From Paracoccus suum (lineage in GTDB: Bacteria; Pseudomonadota; Alphaproteobacteria; Rhodobacterales; Rhodobacteraceae), in assembly GCF_003324675.1 (NCBI RefSeq), contig NZ_CP030918.1, positions 2,130,001 to 2,162,000 of the forward strand: 32,000 nt of DNA. Reading direction: 5' to 3'. A program made the position numbers and the translations under genes. Positions 2-18,884 of this stretch are shown in pieces; the first letter of the stretch is position 1; each line of letters starts with the position of its first letter. The notes under the pieces are model-generated. The model did not search any database. It was not told where the DNA came from and was given only the letters and a program-made list of their open reading frames with translations.

Positions 2-325
2 ACCATCACGAACCCGCCCTTCCGCTTGGCTGAACAGTTCGTCCACCGGGCCTTCGCCACGTCCGACGTGGGGGTCGCGGTCATCGTCCGCAGCGCCTTC
101 CTGGAGGGGATCGGTCGTTACGAGCGGCTGTTCCGCGACAATCCCCCTTCGCTGACCCTGCAGTTCACCGAGCGCGTGCCGATGGTGAAGGGGCGCCATG
201 ACCCTGATGCCACGACGGCCACCTCCTACTGCTGGTTGGTCTGGATGATGGGTGAATCCATGCCTCGCATGGGCTGGATACCGCCCTGTCGTAAGCGCCT
301 CGAGCGGGCAGGGGACGCGGCATGA
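2..325 (+). CDS. DNA N6-adenine methyltransferase, C-terminal part (5' end outside the window)
   Basis: The frame is open from base 2 and reads T-I-T-N-P-P-F, the (D/N)PP(Y/F) catalytic motif IV of amino-methyltransferases. The listed TTG start at 26 is therefore internal. The stop overlaps the next start (ATGA at 322-325). Confidence 0.6.
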   Translation, partial: TITNPPFRLAEQFVHRAFATSDVGVAVIVRSAFLEGIGRYERLFRDNPPSLTLQFTERVPMVKGRHDPDATTATSYCWLVWMMGESMPRMGWIPPCRKRLERAGDAA

Positions 326-1855: not shown

Positions 1856-2100
1856 GCATCCTGGCCCGCATTCGCGCCCATGGCGGCGACCTGACCTTCG
1901 ACCAATGGCGGCCGACGCTTGTGCGCGGCCGGTTGGACGATGCCGCAATCGCCTGGGTCAAGCACCACAGGGATGCAGTGATGACCGAGGCATGGCCGGC
2001 CTATGACGCATGGTGCGAGCGCGCGGCGATCCTTGAGTTCGATGCCGGAATGACCCGCGCCGAGGCGGAGGCCGCGGCCTACGCGGAGGTGGCAGCATGA
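1852..2100 (+). CDS. Hypothetical small protein (82 aa)
   Basis: Start and stop are coupled to both neighbours, and codon usage is typical of the element. The N-terminus resembles the short 'ILARLRAxGxxL' domains seen next to phage helicases and primases (weak). Confidence 0.55.
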   Translation: MSILARIRAHGGDLTFDQWRPTLVRGRLDDAAIAWVKHHRDAVMTEAWPAYDAWCERAAILEFDAGMTRAEAEAAAYAEVAA

Positions 2101-3662
2101 TGCTCGATCTTCGGCCCACCGAAGCAATCAGCCTGCGGCCATATCAGGCCGATGCCGTTGACCTGCTGCGCGAATGCGTGCGGCGGGGTCTCAAGCGCCC
2201 CGTGCTCTACGCCCCGACCGGGGCCGGCAAGACCGTCATCGCGTCGCACCTGTTGCGCGAAGCCAATGCCAAGGGCAGCTATGCGCTGTTCCTGGTGGAC
2301 CGGGTCGAACTGGTCAAACAGACTTCGGCCACCCTCGACCGCTATGGCATCCCGCACGGCATCGTGCAGGGCATCAACGAGCGGTGGATGCCGCGCGAGA
2401 ACGTACAGGTCTGCTCGATCCAGACGCTCGAGCGCCGCGTACTGCCGCGCCGGCCCAGCCTGGTGATCTACGACGAGGCGCACTGCAGCTATCGCAAGAC
2501 CTTGCGGTTCATCGCCGACAACCCGGAGGCCGTCGCCATCGGTCTGACCGCCACCCCATTCACCAAGGGCATGGGCGATCACTGGGACACCATCGTCAAT
2601 GTCGCCTCCACCCGCACCCTGATCGACGCCGGCAACCTGATCGAGCCGCTGATCTACGTCGCGCGCTCGCCGCAGGACAGCGAACTTGCCGTCTCGGGCA
2701 TGGGTGAGTTCACCGATGCCAGCGCGACCGGCGCAGGCATCAAGATCATCGGTGACGTGGTCGCGGAGTGGATCGCCAAGACGTGCGAGCATTTCGGCGG
2801 ACCTGCCAAGACCATCGTGTTCAGCCCGACCGTCGAGCACGGGCGCGAGTTGTGCGCAGCCTTCGCCGACGCCGGGTTTAACTTCCAGCAGGTCAGCTAC
2901 CTGGACCGCAACGAGGCCGAGCGTGACGCCAAGATCGCCGAGTTCCGCCGCCCCGACAGCATCATCCACGGGCTGGTGTCCTGCGGCGTACTGACTAAGG
3001 GGTTCGACGTGCCAGACGTGCTGGTTGGCATCGGCTGCAAGCCATACCGCAAGAGCCTGTCGAGCCACATGCAGGAGATCGGGCGCATCATGCGGCCGGC
3101 CGAGGGCAAGGCGAAGGCACTCTGGCTCTGCCACAGCGGCAACGTCGAGCGGTTTGCCCTCGACACCTACGATGTCTGGGAGAACGGCGCGGGCGACCTG
3201 TCCAAGGCCACGAAGCGCGACAGCACTCCGCGCAAGCGCGAGCCGGGCGAGCGGGCCAAGGTGGTCTGCCCGGAATGCAGCGGGGCCCTTTACGGCGACA
3301 CCTGCCGCTCATGCGGCTGGCAGCGCCCGGCGCGGTCCGGCATCCATTCCGTCGACGGTTCGCTTCATGCCTTCGATCCAGCGACGCTGGCGATGGCGAC
3401 GCGCCCAGGGCTTCGGGCCGAGTGCCTGAATGACCCACGCGGCGTCTGGAGCGCGGCCCTGTCCTATTGCCTCGGCAACAGCCGCTACGGCGAGGACAAG
3501 GCACGCCGCTGGGCTGCGGGGATCTGGCATGGGGTTTATCCCGACGCGAAGCTGCCCGCTGGCTGGTACTCCGCCGCGCCGGGCCCGATCAGCGACAGCG
3601 CGCTGGGCCTGATCGACCGAGAGGTCAAGCGCTTTCGCCAGTCGAAGCGGAGGGCAGCATGA
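2097..3662 (+). CDS. Superfamily-2 DEAD/DEAH-box helicase (phage replicative/recombination helicase, res-subunit-like) with C-terminal zinc ribbon
   Basis: Motif I APTGAGKT, motif II YDEAH, motif III TATP, motif VI QEIGRIMR. A CPECSGALYGDTCRSCGW Cys4 ribbon lies downstream. Confidence 0.9.
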   Translation: MMLDLRPTEAISLRPYQADAVDLLRECVRRGLKRPVLYAPTGAGKTVIASHLLREANAKGSYALFLVDRVELVKQTSATLDRYGIPHGIVQGINERWMPRENVQVCSIQTLERRVLPRRPSLVIYDEAHCSYRKTLRFIADNPEAVAIGLTATPFTKGMGDHWDTIVNVASTRTLIDAGNLIEPLIYVARSPQDSELAVSGMGEFTDASATGAGIKIIGDVVAEWIAKTCEHFGGPAKTIVFSPTVEHGRELCAAFADAGFNFQQVSYLDRNEAERDAKIAEFRRPDSIIHGLVSCGVLTKGFDVPDVLVGIGCKPYRKSLSSHMQEIGRIMRPAEGKAKALWLCHSGNVERFALDTYDVWENGAGDLSKATKRDSTPRKREPGERAKVVCPECSGALYGDTCRSCGWQRPARSGIHSVDGSLHAFDPATLAMATRPGLRAECLNDPRGVWSAALSYCLGNSRYGEDKARRWAAGIWHGVYPDAKLPAGWYSAAPGPISDSALGLIDREVKRFRQSKRRAA

Positions 3663-4312
3663 GCTTGCGTGTTCTGATCGGTTGCGAAACCTCGGGCGTG
3701 ATGCGGAGGGCATTCACTGCGCTCGGACACGACGCCTGGTCCTGTGATCTTCTAGCGGCCGAGGACGGCAGCAATCGCCATATTCGTGGTGACATTCGCG
3801 ACCATCTGGGGGACGGCTGGGATTTGCTGGTTGTCTGTCATCCGCCCTGCACCCGCCTATGCAACAGCGGAGTTCGCTGGCTCAGCGTCCCGCCGCCTGG
3901 CCGGACGCGCGCCGAAATGTGGGCCGAACTGGACGAGGGCGCCGCGCTGTTCGCGGCTTGCTGGGAGGCGCCCGTTGCGCGCCTCGCAATCGAGAATCCG
4001 GTCATGCATCGCCATGCGCGGGCGCGCCTCCCGGAGGACCTGCCAAAGCCGCAGATCGTCCAACCCTGGTGGTTCGGTGAGCCAGCTAAAAAGGCGACCG
4101 GCTTCTACCTCCGGGGGCTGCCGCCTTTGGCTCCAACCGATCGGCTCACACTGCCTTCGAAGGGCTCACCAGAGGACCACCGCTGGCAGGCCGTCCATCG
4201 GTGTCCGCCCGGACCCGACCGGTGGCGCATCCGCAGCCGAACATTCGAAGGCATCGCCGCGGCCTGCGCTGACCAGTGGGGCGGCCATGCACTGCGTGAG
4301 ATTGCGGCATGA
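3659..4312 (+). CDS. Putative DNA (cytosine-5) methyltransferase-like protein (217 aa, compact phage type)
   Basis: VLIGCETSG (motif I-like), VVCHPPCTRL (Pro-Cys catalytic motif IV) and AIENPV (ENV motif VI). Start is the ATG overlapping the helicase stop (ATGA at 3659-3662). Confidence 0.55.
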   Translation: MSLRVLIGCETSGVMRRAFTALGHDAWSCDLLAAEDGSNRHIRGDIRDHLGDGWDLLVVCHPPCTRLCNSGVRWLSVPPPGRTRAEMWAELDEGAALFAACWEAPVARLAIENPVMHRHARARLPEDLPKPQIVQPWWFGEPAKKATGFYLRGLPPLAPTDRLTLPSKGSPEDHRWQAVHRCPPGPDRWRIRSRTFEGIAAACADQWGGHALREIAA

Positions 4313-5214
4313 GCGTGCACGATGCGATGGTTGAGGCCTGCCGCGCGGTCGGGATCGTTCCGCCGGCTCGCCCCGTTCCCGGCCGCTGGGTTCTGGCGGA
4401 TGTTGAGGGCAAGGCGAACGGGAAAGGCGATGGCCGCGTCAAACTGGACCCAGATGGTCGCGGTGGCGTGTCGTGGAATCACCAGACCGGGCAGCATGCG
4501 CGGTTCCGGGATCAGGCCGCACCGGCATCCCCGGCGCGCCCGCGGGACCTTGCGCGCGAACGCGAGCAGGAGGCCGACCGCCGTGCCGTCGCCGCGATCT
4601 ACGCCGCCCTGGTGGGCGCGAGCCGGCAGGAGCGGCACGCTTACCTGGCGCGCAAGGGTTTCCCCGAGGAGCGCGGGCTCGTGCTCGAGGATGCGCGGGC
4701 GGTCCTTCCCGCCACTGGCATGGGCCCGCGGGTTGCCGCGGCTCTGCCGGAGGGGGAGGGGCCCCTGCTGCTGATCCCTGGACGGGCTGGCGGCGAGGTG
4801 ACCACCGTCCAGTTCATCACCGCCGAAGGCATCAAGAAGAACATCCTCGGCGGCCGCATGGGCGCCGCGGCCCACAGGATCGCCACAGGGCGCGAGACCT
4901 GGGTCTGCGAGGGTATCGCGACCGCGCTCAGCGTCCGCGCGGCCCTGAGGCTGCTGGGTCGCTCCGCAACGGTCCTTTCGGCTTTCAGCGCGCAGAATGT
5001 CGCCAAGGTCGCGGGAGCGATCCCCGGCGCCATCATCGCCGCTGACCACGACAAGACCGTCGACGTTTTCGGCACCGGCACCGGCGAGCATTACGCGCGC
5101 CAGTCCGGCTGCCGCTGGGTCATGCCGCCCGAGATGGGCGACTGGAACGACCATCACACGCGGCACGGCCTGCGGGCCGTCGCGCTGCTGCTGCGCGAGG
5201 TGAAGCCGCCGTGA
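4309..5214 (+). CDS. Toprim-domain DNA primase-like protein
   Basis: TWVCEGIATALS (Toprim conserved Glu) and IIAADHDKT (DxD metal motif). Sits directly after the helicase in the replication module. Confidence 0.8.
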   Translation: MSVHDAMVEACRAVGIVPPARPVPGRWVLADVEGKANGKGDGRVKLDPDGRGGVSWNHQTGQHARFRDQAAPASPARPRDLAREREQEADRRAVAAIYAALVGASRQERHAYLARKGFPEERGLVLEDARAVLPATGMGPRVAAALPEGEGPLLLIPGRAGGEVTTVQFITAEGIKKNILGGRMGAAAHRIATGRETWVCEGIATALSVRAALRLLGRSATVLSAFSAQNVAKVAGAIPGAIIAADHDKTVDVFGTGTGEHYARQSGCRWVMPPEMGDWNDHHTRHGLRAVALLLREVKPP

Positions 5215-7279: not shown

Positions 7280-7909
7280 CTAGAGGGGCTCATCCACCAG
7301 GCGCAGCGCTCCATCGGGCAAAGGCCTTTGCAGCTTGCCTGCAACCTCCCATGGCGCAGAGAGCCATGTGTCCCACTCTTCCCGCCGCGTGAGGATGACC
7401 GGCATCGCCTTGGGATGAATGGGCCGGACCTCTGCATTGGGCTCCGTCGTGAGGAAGGCGAACAGATCGTCGGTGGTGGCGCCATCCTTGATCTTGCGCA
7501 CCGAGGTCCAGTTCGGAACCTGAAGCCCTGCGAAGAACATGGGCTCGCCATCAGCAGCGGCGAACCACTGGTTGCCGAGGCCGGCGCCGCGGGGTTCTGC
7601 AAACGCTGTCAGCGGCACGAGACAGCGATACGCGGGCCCCAGCCAACGCCGCCAGTGGGGCGAGCTTGCATTGCGCACGTTCGTGACGCCGGGGTCACGG
7701 ACGGTCTTGAGGAGCGACTTGGGGGACGGCAGCCCCCAGCGCGCCCGCACGATCTCCAGCCCCTCGTCGGCATGGCGAATGATAGGCGCCGGCCGATCAG
7801 GGTATATCGGGCCGGGTTCAACGTTGCCTGCCCGGTCATGTACCGTCAGGTCCGCGAACAGCCGGCGCATCGCCTCTTGCGTCGTCGTCTGGTTGTAGAG
7901 GTTGCACAT
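7280..7909 (-). CDS. SOS response-associated peptidase (SRAP/YedK-like, DUF159)
   Basis: Start set at M-C-N-L-Y so that the catalytic Cys2 is N-terminal, with a GAGGGA RBS 7-8 nt upstream. RCLVPLTAFAEP and PIHPKAMPVIL match the SRAP Glu and His motifs. Confidence 0.85.
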   Translation of the reverse strand: MCNLYNQTTTQEAMRRLFADLTVHDRAGNVEPGPIYPDRPAPIIRHADEGLEIVRARWGLPSPKSLLKTVRDPGVTNVRNASSPHWRRWLGPAYRCLVPLTAFAEPRGAGLGNQWFAAADGEPMFFAGLQVPNWTSVRKIKDGATTDDLFAFLTTEPNAEVRPIHPKAMPVILTRREEWDTWLSAPWEVAGKLQRPLPDGALRLVDEPL

Positions 7910-7978
7910 CCTGTATCCCTCGCAGGTCGCAGCGGCCGACATTGCCCGTGCAATAACATCGCTGTGGGAGGCATAGCC

Positions 7979-8224
7979 ATGACGGTCGTCTCCCTAGTCG
8001 GAACTCAGCTAACGGACGACGGCGCCAACGCTGACGTGATCCGCGAACTGGAGGACCTTCTGAGGCAAGCCCGTCGCGGCGAGATCAAGGGGTTCGCCAT
8101 CGCTGCCGGGCGCCCCAACGGGCACGTCCATACGGGATGGGCAGGTATCGGTGCGCTCACCGTCCTGGGCGGCGTGCAGGTCCTTGCGACCCGCCTCGCA
8201 TCGGCCTGCTGGCACGACACGTAG
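7979..8224 (+). CDS. Hypothetical protein (81 aa), divergent from the SRAP gene
   Basis: GGGAGG RBS 6 nt upstream of the ATG at 7979. Only the non-overlapping tail of the 7328..8224 ORF is credible, because the rest is antisense to the SRAP gene. A small GCGCA-AAA-TGCGC hairpin plus CGTTT follows the stop. Confidence 0.5.
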   Translation: MTVVSLVGTQLTDDGANADVIRELEDLLRQARRGEIKGFAIAAGRPNGHVHTGWAGIGALTVLGGVQVLATRLASACWHDT

Positions 8225-8373: not shown

Positions 8374-9267
8374 CTAGTCTCCGAATTGGTAGATGTTGCG
8401 ATGGTGTCGCATGTGAGAGATCTGACCGGCACTAAGGCTAACGGTCAGACCTTTGACCCCCAGCGCTCGCTTCGAGTTGGACGAAAGCCGTTCCGAGACC
8501 AGCAGCTCACCACCATCTGAAAAGCTGACGAAACCCTTGTCAAACAAGGCGTCCCACGTCGGCGACAACAGTAGAGCGTTGTCGGCGCTCAGGCACTCGT
8601 TTGGGTTGTCCCAGCAGTCTCGCCACGGCTTTATATGCGAGGCAACCAGTAATCTTTGCTCATTGAGGCCGGTCACGAGGCAGCTGCCGTAGCTTTGAAG
8701 AACCCGGCGCCGAAACAGCCCTTGGCCCACTCGCGCTTTTATAATGGCATCGCGAGTCGTCGCCGGTAGCGTCTCGTCGCGGAGAACTCGCTCTTCGATC
8801 TCATCCACGTTGTTGGTGCCATGCGAAATGAAGGCCTCTTCGTCGCCAAGATGGTCCGCCAACCAGTTGGCGACCTCGGGCGTAATCCAGAATGTGCGTG
8901 CTGCATTGTCTGGCTCAGCGCGCAGGGAAGAACAGAACCGGTGAAATAGTCGGTCGACCGCATCGTCGGGTGTATTCGTAATGGTGAACCCAAACTGTTT
9001 GCTTAAAACCTGCCGAATGCGGGGCGTCGTCTCGCGGCCGTCGAGTTGCTCGCGTTTTACATGCTCAGAAACCGTGTTGTCTTTGTAGCCCAGGAAGCGA
9101 GACGGACCGAAAGCGATTCCGTCGCCGCTCAAATAGGGGAGCAATACCCGGCCCTTGGATACTAGAGAACGGTAGATCTCATAGTCCCCGCCACGGGAGG
9201 AAGCCCGTGCAGTCTCGAGTGCTGTGATGTTCGCTTCAAGATCGCGATATTCTGTGATGAGACTCAT
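8374..9267 (-). CDS. HNH nuclease (HNH_2 / PF13391-type C-terminal domain) with an uncharacterised N-terminal domain of about 190 aa
   Basis: ARVGQGLFRRRVLQSYGSCLVTGLNEQRLLVASHIKPW...NALLLSPTWDALFDKGFVSF is the classic HNH_2 signature. Start at MSLITEY (ATG 9267) has a GGGAGA RBS. GC is visibly lower than in flanking phage genes. Confidence 0.8.
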   Translation of the reverse strand: MSLITEYRDLEANITALETARASSRGGDYEIYRSLVSKGRVLLPYLSGDGIAFGPSRFLGYKDNTVSEHVKREQLDGRETTPRIRQVLSKQFGFTITNTPDDAVDRLFHRFCSSLRAEPDNAARTFWITPEVANWLADHLGDEEAFISHGTNNVDEIEERVLRDETLPATTRDAIIKARVGQGLFRRRVLQSYGSCLVTGLNEQRLLVASHIKPWRDCWDNPNECLSADNALLLSPTWDALFDKGFVSFSDGGELLVSERLSSNSKRALGVKGLTVSLSAGQISHMRHHRNIYQFGD

Positions 9268-9403
9268 GTGCATTCTCCCTGATAGGCACACCCCAGTTCT
9301 ATTGCATGTCCCAGCGCGAGTCTCGGCGAGTTGATAACACGCTGACTTCTTCTTGTCCGACGACCCGCACTATTGCGGCGCATTAAAGAGCGAGCATGGA
9401 GCA

Positions 9404-9772
9404 ATGGGTCGTCTGGCTAAACTTCCGCCTCGGATGGCAACGGTACGCCAGTCCATTGCGGCCACCGGCCCCATCGCAGAACTGCCGACATCCGGCGAGC
9501 GCTCGGCATGGTCAGGTAAAGGCAGCAGGCACGAACGGGGCTACGGCTCCGCATGGGTCAAGACCGCGGCCCGCATCCTCAAGCGCGACAGCTACCTGTG
9601 CCAAGAGTGCCTGAGGCACGACAGGCTGACAGCGCTCAAGGTCAGGCCACGCGACCATGCCGTCGACCACATCGTCCCCAAGGCTCATGGCGGCAACGAC
9701 GAGGACAGCAACCTCGAGAGCCTGTGCGCGCCCTGCCACGCCGCCAAGACGGCTAAGGAATGGATGAGATGA
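9404..9772 (+). CDS. Terminase-associated phage HNH endonuclease
   Basis: RGYGSAWVKTAARILKRDSYLCQEC...VDHIVPKAHGGNDEDSNLESLCAPCHAAKT is an HNH motif with Cys pairs. It lies directly upstream of terS and terL, as in HK97-like cos phages. Start at MGRLAKLPPR. Confidence 0.85.
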   Translation: MGRLAKLPPRMATVRQSIAATGPIAELPTSGERSAWSGKGSRHERGYGSAWVKTAARILKRDSYLCQECLRHDRLTALKVRPRDHAVDHIVPKAHGGNDEDSNLESLCAPCHAAKTAKEWMR

Positions 9773-10026
9773 AGGTGAAGGCAAACGATGCCGTATCCGT
9801 CGGAGACCGCTTCCACGATTGGGTGCTGGTTGCCACCGGCTCTAAGAGCATCTGGGACGCATGGTACTTCTTGAGCGATTCAGGCGAGAAGTACCACTAT
9901 CGGACGGCGCCGGGGTTCCCTCTGACCAAGTCGCAAGCGATGGCTGGGTTGCGGGATGCTTCTGAGAGCCTTCGTCGTCAAAGATGCGAGCGAGAGCTGG
10001 CGCTTGAGTACGCGCGGATGTGCTGA
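9769..10026 (+). CDS. Hypothetical protein (85 aa)
   Basis: ATG 9769 overlaps the HNH stop (ATGA); ATG 9760 is an alternative. Moderately lower GC. No motif recognised. Confidence 0.45.
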   Translation: MKVKANDAVSVGDRFHDWVLVATGSKSIWDAWYFLSDSGEKYHYRTAPGFPLTKSQAMAGLRDASESLRRQRCERELALEYARMC

Positions 10027-10156
10027 CTTGAAGGGGGGGAGGGCAAAAGTCGGCAACCCAAGGTATCTGGGTACCGGCGTCCTCCTCACGCAGAGATAAA
10101 ATCCCGGCCGTTTGATTATCCAGCGGCGAAATCAATCCGAAATCAAAGGTGCTGAC

Positions 10157-10489
10157 ATGGCCCGAGGTGGTGCCCGGCCTGGTGCTGGCCGCCCTCGTAA
10201 AGAGGCTGGCAGTGTCCCGGCGGTGAAGAACGAGGCGGCAGCGAACCGTCCGCGCAAGTCCCTCGGTGGGATGACCCCGCTGGAGTACATGCTGGCGGTG
10301 ATGAACGACGCTGAGCAGGAGCCGACCCGGCGCGACCGGATGGCGATGGCGGCGGCACCCTTTGTGCATGCACGGGCATCCGATGTCGTCCCCGGCAAGA
10401 AGGAGCAGAAGCAGGACGCGGCGGAGAAAGTGGCGGCCGGCAAGTTCGCTCCGCGCGGCGGCCCGCGCCTGGCGGTCAGTAACGGGTGA
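10157..10489 (+). CDS. terS: Terminase small subunit (P27-like family)
   Basis: MARGGARPGAGRPRK...TPLEYMLAVMND...RRDRMAMAAAPFVH is the typical N-terminus and core of P27-type small terminases. The stop overlaps the terL start. Confidence 0.8.
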   Translation: MARGGARPGAGRPRKEAGSVPAVKNEAAANRPRKSLGGMTPLEYMLAVMNDAEQEPTRRDRMAMAAAPFVHARASDVVPGKKEQKQDAAEKVAAGKFAPRGGPRLAVSNG

Positions 10490-12162
10490 TGCCGGTGTGG
10501 TCGACGGCCTGCCCGGATTGGGAGCGCCGGATCGTCAATCGTGAGGGACTGATCCCGTTCGCCCCGCTGTTCCAGTCAGAGGCCGACTATGCCCTCGGCG
10601 TATTCAAGTCGCTGCGGGTGCCAGACCTGCCCGGCAAGCCTACCTTCGGTGAGGTGAGCGCGCCGTGGGTGTTCGAGTTCGTCTCGGCGATCTTCGGCGC
10701 GAATGACCCTGAGACGGGCAACCAATTGATCAGCGAGTTCTTCCTCTGCATCAGCAAGAAGAACACGAAATCCACGATAGCTGCGGCGATCATGCTGACG
10801 GCGCTGATCATTGGCTGGCGAGAGGACGAGGAGCTGCTGATCCTCGCGCCGACAGTTGAGGTGGCGGGCAACAGCTATAAGCCGGCGGCGGCGATGGTCC
10901 GGGCCGACGAGGAGTTGGCAGACCTGCTGCATGTGCAGGACCATGTGAGGACGATCACGCACCGGGTGACCAAATCGTCGCTCAAGGTCGTGGCCGCGGA
11001 CACGGACACGGTGGGCGGCAAGAAGTCGGGCCGGATCCTGATCGATGAGCTGTGGATCTTTGGCAAGCGGCCGAGCGCGGATGCCATGCTGCGGGAGGCG
11101 ACGGGCGGCTTGGTATCGCGGCCCGAGGGCTTCGTAATCTACCTGACCACCCAGGCGGACGCGCCGCCGGCCGGGGTGTTCAAGGATAAGCTGGACTATG
11201 CGCGCGACGTGCGGGACGGCCGCATCGAGGACAAGCGGTTCCTGCCCGTGATCTACGAATACCCGCAGAAGATGCTGGATCGCGAGGCGTATCTGGAGCC
11301 GGCCAACTTCTACGTCACGAACCCCAACATGGGGCGCAGCGTGTCGCAGGACTGGCTCGAACGGGAGATGGGCAAGGAACTGGCCAAGGACGCCAGCACC
11401 CGCGCGACGTTCTTTGCCAAGCATCTGAACGTCGAGATCGGGATGAACTTGCGGGCCAACCGCTGGCCCGGGGCGGATTTTTGGGCGCGCCGCGAGAGGC
11501 CCATGGATCTGGGCGAGGTTCTGGACCGCAGCGAGGTGGTCGTGGTCGGCGTCGACGGCGGCGGCTTGGACGATCTGTTCGGGCTTGCCGTGCTGGGGCG
11601 CGACCGAGAGACAAAAGACTGGCTCGCCTGGTGCCATGCGTGGTGCCACGACGGCGTGCTGGACCGGCGCCGGGCAATTGCGCCGCGTCTACGGGATTTC
11701 GAGCGGGAAGGGTCGCTCACTATCGTCGATGACGAGCTGGCCGACATCTCGGCGATCGTGGAGATCGTGGGCGAGGTGAAGGCTCGGGGCTTGCTCGCCG
11801 CGGTTGCGGCCGACCCGGCAGGCCTCGGCGAGTTGATCGACGCGCTGGCTGCGATCGGTGTGACGCCGGAGGACGGGCAGGTCATCGGCGCGCCGCAGGG
11901 CTACGCGATGATGAACGCGATCAAGACGGCCGAGCGCAAGCTGGCGAACGGCACGCTCTGGCACGACGGCTCGGCGCTGATGGCGTGGGCCGTGGGTAAC
12001 ATCAAGATCGAGCCGACCGCGACGGCGATCCGCGCGACGAAGGCGAACGCCGGCGATGCCAAGATCGACCCGGCCATGGCGCTGTTCGACGCGGTCACGG
12101 TCATGAGCCGGAACCCCGAGGCGCAGAAGGCGCCCGAGTACCAAATGCTGGTCATCGGCTAG
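10486..12162 (+). CDS. terL: Terminase large subunit (Terminase_1 family)
   Basis: 558 aa. Walker A-like SKKNTKST and Walker B-like ILIDELW. Size and position (after terS, before head genes) fit. Confidence 0.9.
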   Translation: MMPVWSTACPDWERRIVNREGLIPFAPLFQSEADYALGVFKSLRVPDLPGKPTFGEVSAPWVFEFVSAIFGANDPETGNQLISEFFLCISKKNTKSTIAAAIMLTALIIGWREDEELLILAPTVEVAGNSYKPAAAMVRADEELADLLHVQDHVRTITHRVTKSSLKVVAADTDTVGGKKSGRILIDELWIFGKRPSADAMLREATGGLVSRPEGFVIYLTTQADAPPAGVFKDKLDYARDVRDGRIEDKRFLPVIYEYPQKMLDREAYLEPANFYVTNPNMGRSVSQDWLEREMGKELAKDASTRATFFAKHLNVEIGMNLRANRWPGADFWARRERPMDLGEVLDRSEVVVVGVDGGGLDDLFGLAVLGRDRETKDWLAWCHAWCHDGVLDRRRAIAPRLRDFEREGSLTIVDDELADISAIVEIVGEVKARGLLAAVAADPAGLGELIDALAAIGVTPEDGQVIGAPQGYAMMNAIKTAERKLANGTLWHDGSALMAWAVGNIKIEPTATAIRATKANAGDAKIDPAMALFDAVTVMSRNPEAQKAPEYQMLVIG

Positions 12163-17410: not shown

Positions 17411-17632
17411 ATGGCCACGTGGACTTCTTTCACTAGCCGGGCGATGGGCTACGAGGGCGACCCTGTGATCGTCAACGTAGACCTAATCGAGACAGTGGCG
17501 CCGCACGAGCTTGGGGCCTGCATCTATATGTCGAGCGGGAAGCTGGTCGCGGTCAATGAATCGGCCGCGGACGCTTTTATTAAGATCGCGCAGGCGAGTG
17601 GCATCCCGCCCGTCGAGGGTGCGCGGGCCTGA
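17411..17632 (+). CDS. Hypothetical protein (73 aa)
   Basis: Tightly packed between connector genes. No motif recognised. Confidence 0.5.
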   Translation: MATWTSFTSRAMGYEGDPVIVNVDLIETVAPHELGACIYMSSGKLVAVNESAADAFIKIAQASGIPPVEGARA

Positions 17633-17633
17633 C

Positions 17634-18023
17634 ATGGGCATCAGCAGCGCCCTGCAGCGGCTGATCGTCGCCCGGCTCAAGGCCGAGGTGCCCTTGGTCA
17701 GTGGCCGCGTATTCGACGGCCCCAACGAGACTGCGACGATGCCCTACGTCAGCATCGGCCCGAGCTACTGGAACGATGACAGCGCCGAATGCATCCGCGG
17801 CCGCGTCGAGACGGTCCAGGTCGACATCTGGGCGAGCAACAAGCCCGACAAGCGGGCCGCCAAGGACGCTACCGACGAGGTGGTCGCTGCACTGGACGGC
17901 TGGGAGGACACCGCGGCGCTGACCATGCACCCGCTGCGGGTCTCGCTGGTGCGGGTCATGGACGATCCGGCGCCGGGTGTGATCCACGGCGTGGTGCAGG
18001 TCGAGGCGATGGTCGAGGGTTAG
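17634..18023 (+). CDS. DUF3168-like tail terminator / completion protein
   Basis: MGISSALQRLIVARLKAEVPLVSGRVFDGPNETATMPYVSIGP...VQVDIWA resembles DUF3168 (RcGTA g8-like). Start is the ATG at 17634, 2 nt after the upstream stop. Confidence 0.7.
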   Translation: MGISSALQRLIVARLKAEVPLVSGRVFDGPNETATMPYVSIGPSYWNDDSAECIRGRVETVQVDIWASNKPDKRAAKDATDEVVAALDGWEDTAALTMHPLRVSLVRVMDDPAPGVIHGVVQVEAMVEG

Positions 18024-18421
18024 GCCTTTACCTTCATTCGTCCGGTAGCGGCTAAACTGCATGCTTCGATGGCCATTTGGCCGTCAAGATCGTACTTGGC
18101 TCCAGACCCCACAAACCGAGAGGCTAGGGCGCCATCGCGAATTCGGAGATAGAAGGGCTTGTATCCGATATAGGCGCCAAACGAGTTTTTGCCATTTATC
18201 TCGCCGCAGATCGCTCGGCCTTGGCCGTTGCTGAGATCAAACGCGGCGACATTGCGCAACTGCGCCGACCCGGGGTCCTTCAAAGAGTCTACGATAGCTG
18301 ACTGAATGTAACCGCGATCCTTCGACGTCACGGCCGCCGGGCGCGCGTTAACCTCAGTGTCGTTTACATCGACGCAGGCACTTACGCCGAGGGCGACGAG
18401 GACGACCAAACTAAAGCGCAT
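18020..18421 (-). CDS. Opposite-strand moron: small secreted lipoprotein (133 aa)
   Basis: MRFSLVVLVALGVSAC gives a signal peptide plus lipobox V-S-A-C. GC is visibly lower. Its stop overlaps the stop of the convergent DUF3168 gene by sharing bases 18020-18023. The core reads LKDPGSAQLRNV...ICGEINGKNSFGAYIGYKPFY. Confidence 0.8.
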   Translation of the reverse strand: MRFSLVVLVALGVSACVDVNDTEVNARPAAVTSKDRGYIQSAIVDSLKDPGSAQLRNVAAFDLSNGQGRAICGEINGKNSFGAYIGYKPFYLRIRDGALASRFVGSGAKYDLDGQMAIEACSLAATGRMKVKA

Positions 18422-18449
18422 CAGTGATTCCTTTGTTCACGGGTTCGTT

Positions 18450-18884
18450 ATGTCACAGCTATCCCCACGGCTTCGCGCCAGTCTAGAGCGAGTTCCAGAT
18501 ATTGCTCGCGCCGCCGCCGCACAGGCGATGGAGGAGGGCGCGCAGGAGATCGTGGATGCGATGCGGGCGACAGTTCCGGTCGAGAGTGGCGCCCTGCGCG
18601 ACAGCATCGGGTGGACCTGGGGCGAGGTCCCTGCCGGGTCGTTCACCATTGCAGATGTCCGTAGCGGCAAGAACCGAGGCAGGCAGTATGCCACGCTCCG
18701 CCTCAAAATTTATGCCGGCAACCGAGACGCGTTCTACGCGCGGTTTATTGAGTTCGGGACGAAAACCGGCACCCCGGCCCAACCTTTTTTCCATCCGGTC
18801 TGGAAGGCCAAAAAGGCGGCCTTTCGCAAACGCATCCGCGGCGCAGTGAAGCTCGCGATCAAAAGGGAGATGCCCAATGGCTAA
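18450..18884 (+). CDS. HK97 gp10-like head-tail joining / tail component protein
   Basis: VPVESGALRDSI...FYARFIEFGT...AQPFFHPVW matches the HK97-gp10 family signature (tG.Lr.si....yy..f.EfGT....a.PFl.pa). Start at MSQLSPR (18450) avoids overlap with the lipoprotein gene. Confidence 0.75.
   Translation: MSQLSPRLRASLERVPDIARAAAAQAMEEGAQEIVDAMRATVPVESGALRDSIGWTWGEVPAGSFTIADVRSGKNRGRQYATLRLKIYAGNRDAFYARFIEFGTKTGTPAQPFFHPVWKAKKAAFRKRIRGAVKLAIKREMPNG

Follow-up and report, generated by a model that had tools for sequence, protein, structure and literature searches.

Type IV restriction enzymes combine reader modules and nuclease modules, each of which can be exchanged. New readers have each exposed a DNA modification important in phage-host conflict, and readers have often been turned into modification-mapping tools, as with MspJI, AbaSI and, recently, CMoRE. 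Solved structures in the Protein Data Bank (PDB) include readers of the EVE, SRA, YTH, NEco, SBD, McrB-N, winged-helix, SauUSI and EndoIII types. In a type IV enzyme, a specificity domain that reads modified DNA is combined with a nuclease (PMC11090510), and further modification sensor domains are, according to a 2025 preprint, probably still undiscovered (PMC12191111). The described enzyme closest to the one treated here is VcaM4I, a member of the TspA15I/VcaM4I/CmeDI group of EVE-HNH enzymes (PDB 6yex, 6yjb, 6ykf and 6ymg), which was found by biochemistry and phage plating to restrict DNA carrying 5-methylcytosine or 5-hydroxymethylcytosine (PMC7897488). Here we describe a complete gene at positions 8374..9267 (minus strand; stop codon at 8374-8376) of a 32,000-nucleotide stretch of Paracoccus suum DNA (contig NZ_CP030918.1, positions 2,130,001 to 2,162,000), which is called the window below. 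This gene, the HNH_2 gene, encodes a protein of 297 residues in which a nuclease of the known VcaM4I type is apparently joined to something new, namely an uncatalogued, reader-like N-terminal domain (the N-domain).

VcaM4I consists of an EVE domain (residues 1-147), an auto-inhibitory linker helix (148-178) and a dimerising HNH domain (179-309), and its isolated HNH domain is a non-specific toxic nuclease (PMC7897488). Its active-site residues H224, N241, D250 and D254 have been validated experimentally. The window protein resembles VcaM4I in length (297 versus 309 residues) and in its order of N-terminal domain, helical linker and C-terminal HNH_2-type nuclease, and 6yex is its only sequence relative in the PDB: phmmer aligns residues 121-290 of the query with residues 127-302 of the chain (E=2.4e-26), and a profile of 59 family sequences reaches chain residues 164-308 at E=2.5e-48. 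The linker and the C-terminal extension match VcaM4I 148-309, and H224, N241, D250 and D254 are paired with H211, N230, D239 and D243, so that all four active-site residues are kept; H211, N230 and D239 are invariant and D243 is found in at least 90% of the 59 homologues. When the full-length AlphaFold2 (AF2) model (predicted local distance difference test, pLDDT, 90.2; predicted template modelling score, pTM, 0.83) was compared with the PDB by Foldseek, VcaM4I was the best match (E=4e-10) and TagI (6ghs), which is likewise a modification-dependent enzyme, the second (E=7.9e-3), with the SAVED-HNH protein Cap5 among the weak matches. Because of this homology to 6yex, the kept catalytic residues and the ranking of VcaM4I and then TagI, the nuclease module is assigned, as far as sequence can tell, to the VcaM4I/TagI clade. 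It also looks catalytically competent, judged by its conserved residues.

An earlier note on this DNA, made from the letters alone, had claimed a C-terminal HNH_2 signature, and a Pfam match to HNH_2 (PF13391) at residues 196-249 (E=3.2e-10; 40.2 bits against a cutoff of 21) agrees with it. Both sequence strings quoted there are present in the protein: GQGLFRRR...CLVTG...LVASHIKPW...NALLLSP..DALFDKG spans about residues 181-245, and FGPSRFLGYKDNTVSEHVKREQLDGRETTPRIRQVL spans residues 53-88. The module is centred on the beta-beta-alpha-metal core of residues 196-249 (8521..8682), which holds H211, N230, D239 and D243. It also comprises a helical linker of residues 153-193 (8689..8811), placed by the phmmer and profile alignments to 6yex and including the GQGxFR helix, and a C-terminal part of the VcaM4I-type domain, residues 250-297 plus the stop codon (8374..8520), in which G253, S258, H289 and R290 are conserved. 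In the AF2 model, helices are predicted in the linker at residues 153-163, 169-179 and 182-193, and the linker is preceded by a low-confidence interdomain hinge of residues 144-152 (8812..8838), where pLDDT falls below 50; all these parts are on the minus strand.

Residues 1-143 (8839..9267, minus strand) form the N-domain, a putative reader module. About 190 N-terminal residues had been left unassigned in the earlier note; of these, only residues 1 to about 143 stay unassigned. The alignments with VcaM4I begin at about residue 121, and residues ~121-195 fall in the VcaM4I-like linker and nuclease module. AF2 predicts (pLDDT 93.7, pTM 0.88) two long helices, a beta-hairpin and then four more helices with short strands, which would be an alpha+beta fold without a PUA-type barrel. 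Family alignments show a near-invariant motif core at residues 53-80 (9028..9111, minus strand), F-x-P-S-R-F-x-G-Y-x2-N-x4-H-x7-G-x2-T, and the full invariant set is N13, G39, F53, P55-S56-R57-F58, G60-Y61, N64, H69, G77, T80, C112 and W127. The motif presumably forms a pocket for a ligand or a base.

Searches for relatives of the N-domain found no described family. A Pfam scan of 37 members at E<=10 gave no EVE, PUA or other credible match, and the domain is absent both from the library scanned and from the more recent, precomputed release behind the contig tables. Residues 1-143 had no credible match in NCBIfam, PADLOC, PHROGs or PDB sequence and profile searches (the last with a 37-sequence profile), and no published description of the domain was found in the literature. 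A sub-threshold HTH_33 match (E=0.049, in one of the 37 members) and a match to 1vk1 (E=0.78) were treated as chance. With the N-domain alone, Foldseek found nothing similar in the PDB (best E=1.2; all template modelling scores below 0.22) or in BFVD (best E=0.16). SRA, EVE, PUA and SBD readers had been proposed as what might be found here; no reader family was matched, nor was a housekeeping or homing-endonuclease family. Because the PDB comparison gave no match, the N-domain would lie outside the structurally characterised reader families, and it is not recognisable in the model as any of them within the sensitivity of Foldseek, which is limited for small helical domains.

These results set the protein apart from the known enzymes of similar layout. 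In VcaM4I the reader is an EVE domain with a flipping pocket of P24, W82 and Y130; EVE is absent from the window protein (Pfam at E<=10, Foldseek), and its N-domain, unlike the EVE/PUA beta-barrel, is predicted to be mostly helical alpha+beta, without sequence or Foldseek similarity. TagI (SRA-HNH), EcoKMcrA (NEco-HNH) and ScoMcrA/SprMcrA (SBD-[SRA]-HNH) share with it the single chain in which an N-terminal domain precedes an HNH nuclease, the reader role being putative in the present case; however, the N-domain is not SRA, NEco or SBD, to judge by the Foldseek comparison with the PDB. The model NF045808 (PT-DNA_restrict) of the phosphorothioate-dependent ScoMcrA/SprMcrA enzymes reaches 22.3 bits against a cutoff of 180 (E=6e-5), and only nuclease residues 177-265 align with it. 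EcoKMcrA has an HNH of PF01844, whereas the window protein has HNH_2, and the PF01844 relatives carry the present N-domain and not NEco. Unlike winged-helix modification-dependent restriction endonucleases such as DpnI and HhiV4I, the protein has no winged helix among its Foldseek matches and only two helices before the hairpin; the sub-threshold HTH_33 match was the sole winged-helix signal.

The N-domain appears to be a previously uncatalogued, large and modular family. With a profile built from it alone, 964 representatives of clusters formed at 50% identity were retrieved at E<=1e-3; 713 of them pass E<=1e-10. When 320 retrieved N-domain proteins were sorted by the VcaM4I-type HNH_2 module and by length, the domain was fused to that module in 122; the proteins without it have at most 170 residues in 139 cases (here called stand-alone), 171-270 residues in 48 and more than 270 in 11. 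Pfam partners in 66 multidomain representatives were HNH_2 (34) and HNH PF01844 (14), and further partners were the C-terminal half of DUF3427 together with the GIY-YIG-like T5orf172/MUG113, HEPN_Swt1, and tandem N-domains with HNH_2. The same nuclease module also occurs with other N-terminal domains in 36 retrieved proteins, and these alternative partners include EVE, as in VcaM4I; the modularity is therefore visible from both sides. At each invariant polar or aromatic position, at least 93% of members retain the residue, whether they are fused or stand alone and whichever architecture class they belong to; one conserved ligand is thereby implied for the family, as far as conservation is a guide.

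In McrB homologues, the N-terminal specificity domains are small and modular, and DUF3427 is the target-recognition region of SauUSI (PMC11090510; PMC6765204). One family member is a 1200-residue McrB-like protein (P0302) with the N-domain at its extreme N-terminus, followed by DUF8426, AAA_5 and McrB_lid; directly after its gene come McrC, then type I restriction-modification (R-M) genes (hsdM/hsdS) and an SMC-like ATPase. By its gene content this locus (L012, 1230..6164) is a McrBC system with the N-domain as N-terminal module. In the DUF3427 fusions, the N-domain occupies the place of the first ~121 positions of the DUF3427 profile. Pfam alignments of DUF3427 never reach into the N-domain, the E<=10 scan of 37 N-domains lists no DUF3427, and a PDB search with a DUF3427 fusion protein gave no match to SauUSI; these negatives speak, indirectly, against the N-domain being a divergent N-terminal half of DUF3427. 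Some N-domain proteins carry the C-terminal half of the region known from DUF3427 enzymes (the SauUSI target-recognition domain; the McaZI/YenY4I groups) together with a GIY-YIG-like nuclease, unlike the window protein, which has no DUF3427. Because these partners and positions match published type IV layouts, namely the McrB N-terminus and DUF3427, the N-domain appears to stand in the reader slot of several independent type IV architectures of McrB, HNH and GIY-YIG type. In this respect it is similar to the EVE reader family, which also occurs as stand-alone proteins, in HNH fusions and as the N-terminal part of McrB GTPases whose neighbour is McrC (PMC7641849; PMC11090510); however, the N-domain is unrelated to EVE in sequence, has a different predicted fold and is not in Pfam.

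The HNH_2 gene is accessory cargo of what its gene content marks as a prophage. Its content of guanine plus cytosine (GC) is 56.4% (64.8% at third codon positions, GC3) against 64.9 +/- 3.1% (GC3 76.1 +/- 7.0%) in 23 other open reading frames (ORFs), the lowest among the 24 tabulated, as expected from the earlier description of a gene with lower GC than the phage backbone. Among 25 related prophages, found through their TerL at 47-84% identity, none has a homologue of the HNH_2 gene or of the neighbouring gene for an SOS-response-associated peptidase (SRAP) within 6 kb of the terminase. It is this absence, together with the lowest GC, that establishes the accessory status.

Most homologues lie in defence or mobile islands. 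The homologue of Paracoccus sp. WLY502 stands beside PLDc_2, HEPN_AbiU2, IS66 and a ubiquitin-like conflict system. Among the fused homologues, one adjoins a complete type I R-M system, one is next to an N6_N4 methyltransferase, DUF1016 and ResIII, and one shares a mobile element with DUF927 and a helicase-PLD gene, and a PF01844 fusion is found among two GmrSD genes, Mrr_cat and WYL. Three plasmids hold full-length homologues. That of Acinetobacter soli plasmid pGFJ1 belongs to an integrase/ImmA/IrrE/HicAB/HigBA element with a 1700-residue DUF4011 protein and lies 59 nt downstream of the plasmid's xseA-xseB genes (exonuclease VII) in the same orientation (L049, 6493..8822), and a Pontibacillus plasmid homologue lies near the Wadjet gene JetD. 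One further homologue is in an uninformative run of small hypothetical ORFs. At the Paracoccus sp. WLY502 locus, the genes Multi_ubiq, Prok-E2_E, Prok-JAB/ThiF and BubE (L001, 13233..15950) are 4 kb from the homologue, with IS66 between.

Overall, the product is probably a type IV-like restriction endonuclease consisting of a single chain, with the N-domain as its specificity module, and its gene is accessory cargo of the Paracoccus prophage. The role of the N-domain is suggested because the domain is fused to HNH_2, to HNH, to DUF3427 with GIY-YIG, and to McrB with McrC next door. The earlier note had pointed to a prophage defence or type IV gene, and the VcaM4I-homologous nuclease, the modular N-domain with type IV partners, the accessory position and the island contexts of most homologues all fit that proposal. 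In the C-terminal two thirds, the linker helices, the HNH_2 core and the C-terminal extension form a VcaM4I-type nuclease module, which by analogy with VcaM4I would dimerise through its HNH domains and be kept inactive by the linker. The N-domains would bind marked DNA, upon which the nuclease would be released and would make double-strand breaks; cleavage would on the same analogy depend on modification. What is recognised would be one invariant chemical feature, for which a modified base of incoming DNA is the most plausible candidate. Host and prophage might thus be protected, in the lysogenic state, from superinfecting phages or plasmids that bear the mark, and a prophage carrying a putative type IV-like enzyme as cargo is relevant to superinfection exclusion in Rhodobacterales.

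It may also be, and we propose this only tentatively, that the N-domain is a structurally new and widespread family of nucleic-acid modification readers, a functional analogue of EVE and SRA. It would read one mark that has no assigned reader, possibly a hypermodified base of phage DNA, and would serve at least five effector types (HNH_2, HNH, GIY-YIG/DUF3427, McrBC and HEPN) in addition to stand-alone use in metabolic operons. The architecture of the window protein is conceptually expected; the N-domain family itself is large, sharply conserved and structurally unmatched. It offers a concrete reader candidate: the family numbers ~1000 clusters, is found neither in Pfam nor in the PDB, and has a sharp invariant pocket and McrB, HNH and GIY-YIG partners. 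If the proposal is true, enzymes built with the N-domain would constitute a new type IV restriction class and might be used as a reagent to detect the mark.

Several observations weigh against reading the gene as a type IV enzyme and the N-domain as a modification reader. PADLOC gave only generic models, and these cover the nuclease part only: PDLC04132 'HNH', a model without description (E=1.6e-25; residues 164-268 against positions 136-238 of the 286 in the profile), and two 'Type II restriction enzyme' HNH models (E=7.6e-14 and 3.7e-12), which leave the N-domain unassigned. Neither by sequence nor by Foldseek does the N-domain resemble PUA/EVE/SRA/YTH, NEco, SBD, ADAM/DUF3578, winged-helix or iEndoIII readers. 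Its charge is not that of a DNA binder (family median isoelectric point 7.9; 5.6 in this copy, with a net charge of -3); however, neither charge nor isoelectric point is informative about whether the N-domain binds DNA. No full-length homologue was found in 50,697 sequenced-phage records, and one close homologue stands among metabolic genes. In two representatives (P0276 and P0285), an N-terminal HEPN_Swt1 domain (E down to 7e-34), a type that is usually an RNase, is joined to a C-terminal N-domain, a hint that RNA is the target of some family members. Finally, ~43% of the retrieved family members are stand-alone proteins of ~130 residues, some of them inside metabolic operons. One of 129 residues in Flavonifractor sp. 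An92 (L005, 6001..6390) lies between purF-like and purM genes of a purine operon, and one of 126 residues in Qipengyuania sp. (L011, 6001..6381) lies in a valine-catabolism operon, flanked by enoyl-CoA hydratase and a 3-hydroxyisobutyrate-dehydrogenase-like gene. Both have the full invariant motif and are co-directional with their neighbours at gaps of 1-40 nt. Given such copies, the N-domain is not exclusively a defence module.

The possibility that stand-alone N-domains are decayed fragments of fusions was rejected, as every invariant residue is kept. A gene for the nucleotide-modification-associated protein Nmad3 lies ~900 bp from the Qipengyuania stand-alone gene. In another locus (L008, 6001..6737), a stand-alone N-domain gene (134 residues) is followed after 20 nt by an ORF of 103 residues whose GIY-YIG match (E=5.6e-4) is weak and does not quite reach the Pfam cutoff. 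This type of gene pair was seen on several contigs, adjoining TerB_N/TerB_C, BrxC_BrxD and DEAD-helicase genes, and may represent a split reader-plus-nuclease.

The HEPN fusions and the operon-embedded copies would lead one to think of an abortive-infection effector, in which the N-domain would respond to a small molecule, such as a nucleotide-derived signal or a metabolite, or to a phage protein, and would switch on an HNH nuclease without specificity, so that the infected cell is killed or arrested. The invariant polar residues resemble a ligand pocket, the N-domain is not basic, the isolated HNH domain of VcaM4I is non-specific and toxic, and HNH and HEPN are both common in signal-activated systems, of which Cap5, among the weak Foldseek matches, has the SAVED-HNH form; stand-alone copies in purine and valine operons point the same way. 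However, the McrB N-terminal fusion with McrC and the DUF3427 fusions put the N-domain in DNA-reading slots, and no signal-generating enzyme, such as a cyclase, was a conserved neighbour in the contexts examined. We regard such an effector as rather unlikely, and prefer the type IV-like enzyme.

A nuclease that acts independently of modification is likewise unlikely, although the type II models stand next among the PADLOC matches of the window protein and its modification dependence is a prediction. In such an enzyme the N-domain would bind a DNA sequence or structure, single-stranded DNA or RNA, whether modified or not, in a role in restriction or competition. A near-invariant pocket kept across phyla argues against a diversifying sequence specificity. 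Such an enzyme would also need self-protection, yet no dedicated methyltransferase adjoins the gene in the contexts examined: a dedicated solitary methyltransferase was found neither in the window nor in eight other fused-homologue contexts, where every adjoining R-M system is a complete set of type I or type III-like genes. In being a single-gene system without a cognate methyltransferase the window gene is like VcaM4I, and Lutz et al. took a missing dedicated methyltransferase as an argument for modification dependence (PMC6765204).

The prophage had been said in the earlier note to encode two DNA methyltransferases, and this was upheld in part. The fragment at 2..325 and the plus-strand ORF at 3659..4312 match PHROGs (phrog_799, E=4.8e-26, and phrog_757, E=1.5e-56), but Pfam and PDB searches with them found no match. 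Both have normal GC and belong to a different module from the HNH_2 gene, the nearer being 4 kb away from it; a functional tie between them and the nuclease is speculation. The ORF at 3659..4312 contains VVCHPPCTRL, whose HPPC resembles motif IV of C5-cytosine methyltransferases.

A free-standing HNH homing endonuclease inserted in the prophage, with the N-domain as its DNA-binding module and stand-alone copies as remnants, is highly improbable. It might be suggested by the single low-GC, opposite-strand gene between phage modules, by stand-alone N-domains inserted in conserved operons at gaps of 1-40 nt, and by a GIY-YIG/I-TevI-like ORF adjoining one homologue. However, no NUMOD, IENR1, AP2 or other known homing DNA-binding module was detected (Pfam), the homologues lie mainly in chromosomal or plasmid islands, and stand-alone copies that keep the full invariant motif are not decayed remnants. 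McrB/McrC and DUF3427 fusions are not homing architectures, and the closest relatives of the nuclease, VcaM4I and TagI, are dimeric restriction enzymes. Because a full-length homologue is found in 0 of the 50,697 phage genomes, the HNH_2 gene is also not a typical phage gene.

That it is a packaging or replication accessory of the phage's own life cycle, a terminase-associated HNH as its place about 1.2 kb upstream of TerL might suggest, can be dismissed as extremely improbable, since that role fits the adjacent plus-strand ORF 9353..9772 (phrog_589/144). The HNH_2 gene, by contrast, runs in the other direction, and its PHROG matches are all to families of unknown function and confined to the nuclease part; it is also absent from the 25 related prophages and has chromosomal or plasmid homologues outside prophages. 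By its family matches (PF01844; phrog_589, E=4.3e-30, and also phrog_144), ORF 9353..9772 is a classic phage HNH and would be the phage's own packaging-associated nuclease. With small ORFs and TerL it forms a plus-strand series (9353..12162) in an arrangement typical of HNH-assisted packaging.

As for the gene itself, the 1523 homologues retrieved with the 297-residue protein mean that 8374..9267 is a real gene and no chance ORF, and the product is 100% identical to a 297-residue NCBI protein of Paracoccus suum that is named only 'HNH endonuclease'. An alternative GTG start 24 nt upstream would give 305 residues; the start at the ATG (9267) is favoured because a Shine-Dalgarno sequence, AGGGAG (9275..9280, minus strand), precedes it by 7-8 nt. 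Scans around the gene for promoter and terminator consensus sequences, repeats, Rfam families and tRNA gave nothing informative, and no insertion scars were found around it.

The gene lies where the replication module meets the packaging module, as the earlier description of an early/late junction had it. Upstream are a helicase (2097..3662), a primase (4309..5214) and, also on the replication side, a DUF1064/resolvase ORF and a ParB-like ORF; downstream, the phage HNH is followed by TerL (10486..12162, plus strand) and, further on, the structural genes. The description of a single opposite-strand gene is correct in that it is the lone minus-strand gene between the plus-strand ORFs 7943..8224, a small one, and 9353..9772; however, the SRAP gene (YedK-like; 7280..7942; PF02586, E=9e-20; phrog_1599, E=1.9e-38) is also on the minus strand. 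That the SRAP gene, 430 bp away, and the HNH_2 gene were acquired as one cassette was considered and rejected, for the SRAP gene, unlike the HNH_2 gene, is normal in GC (65.8%) and strongly matches a phage family (phrog_1599).

A second low-GC minus-strand ORF of 133 residues (18020..18421; GC 56.7%, GC3 64.9%) lies inside the tail module, flanked by Tail_completion_gp17 (17511..18023) and an HK97-gp10-like ORF (18357..18884); it has no Pfam match and could be another moron or cargo gene.

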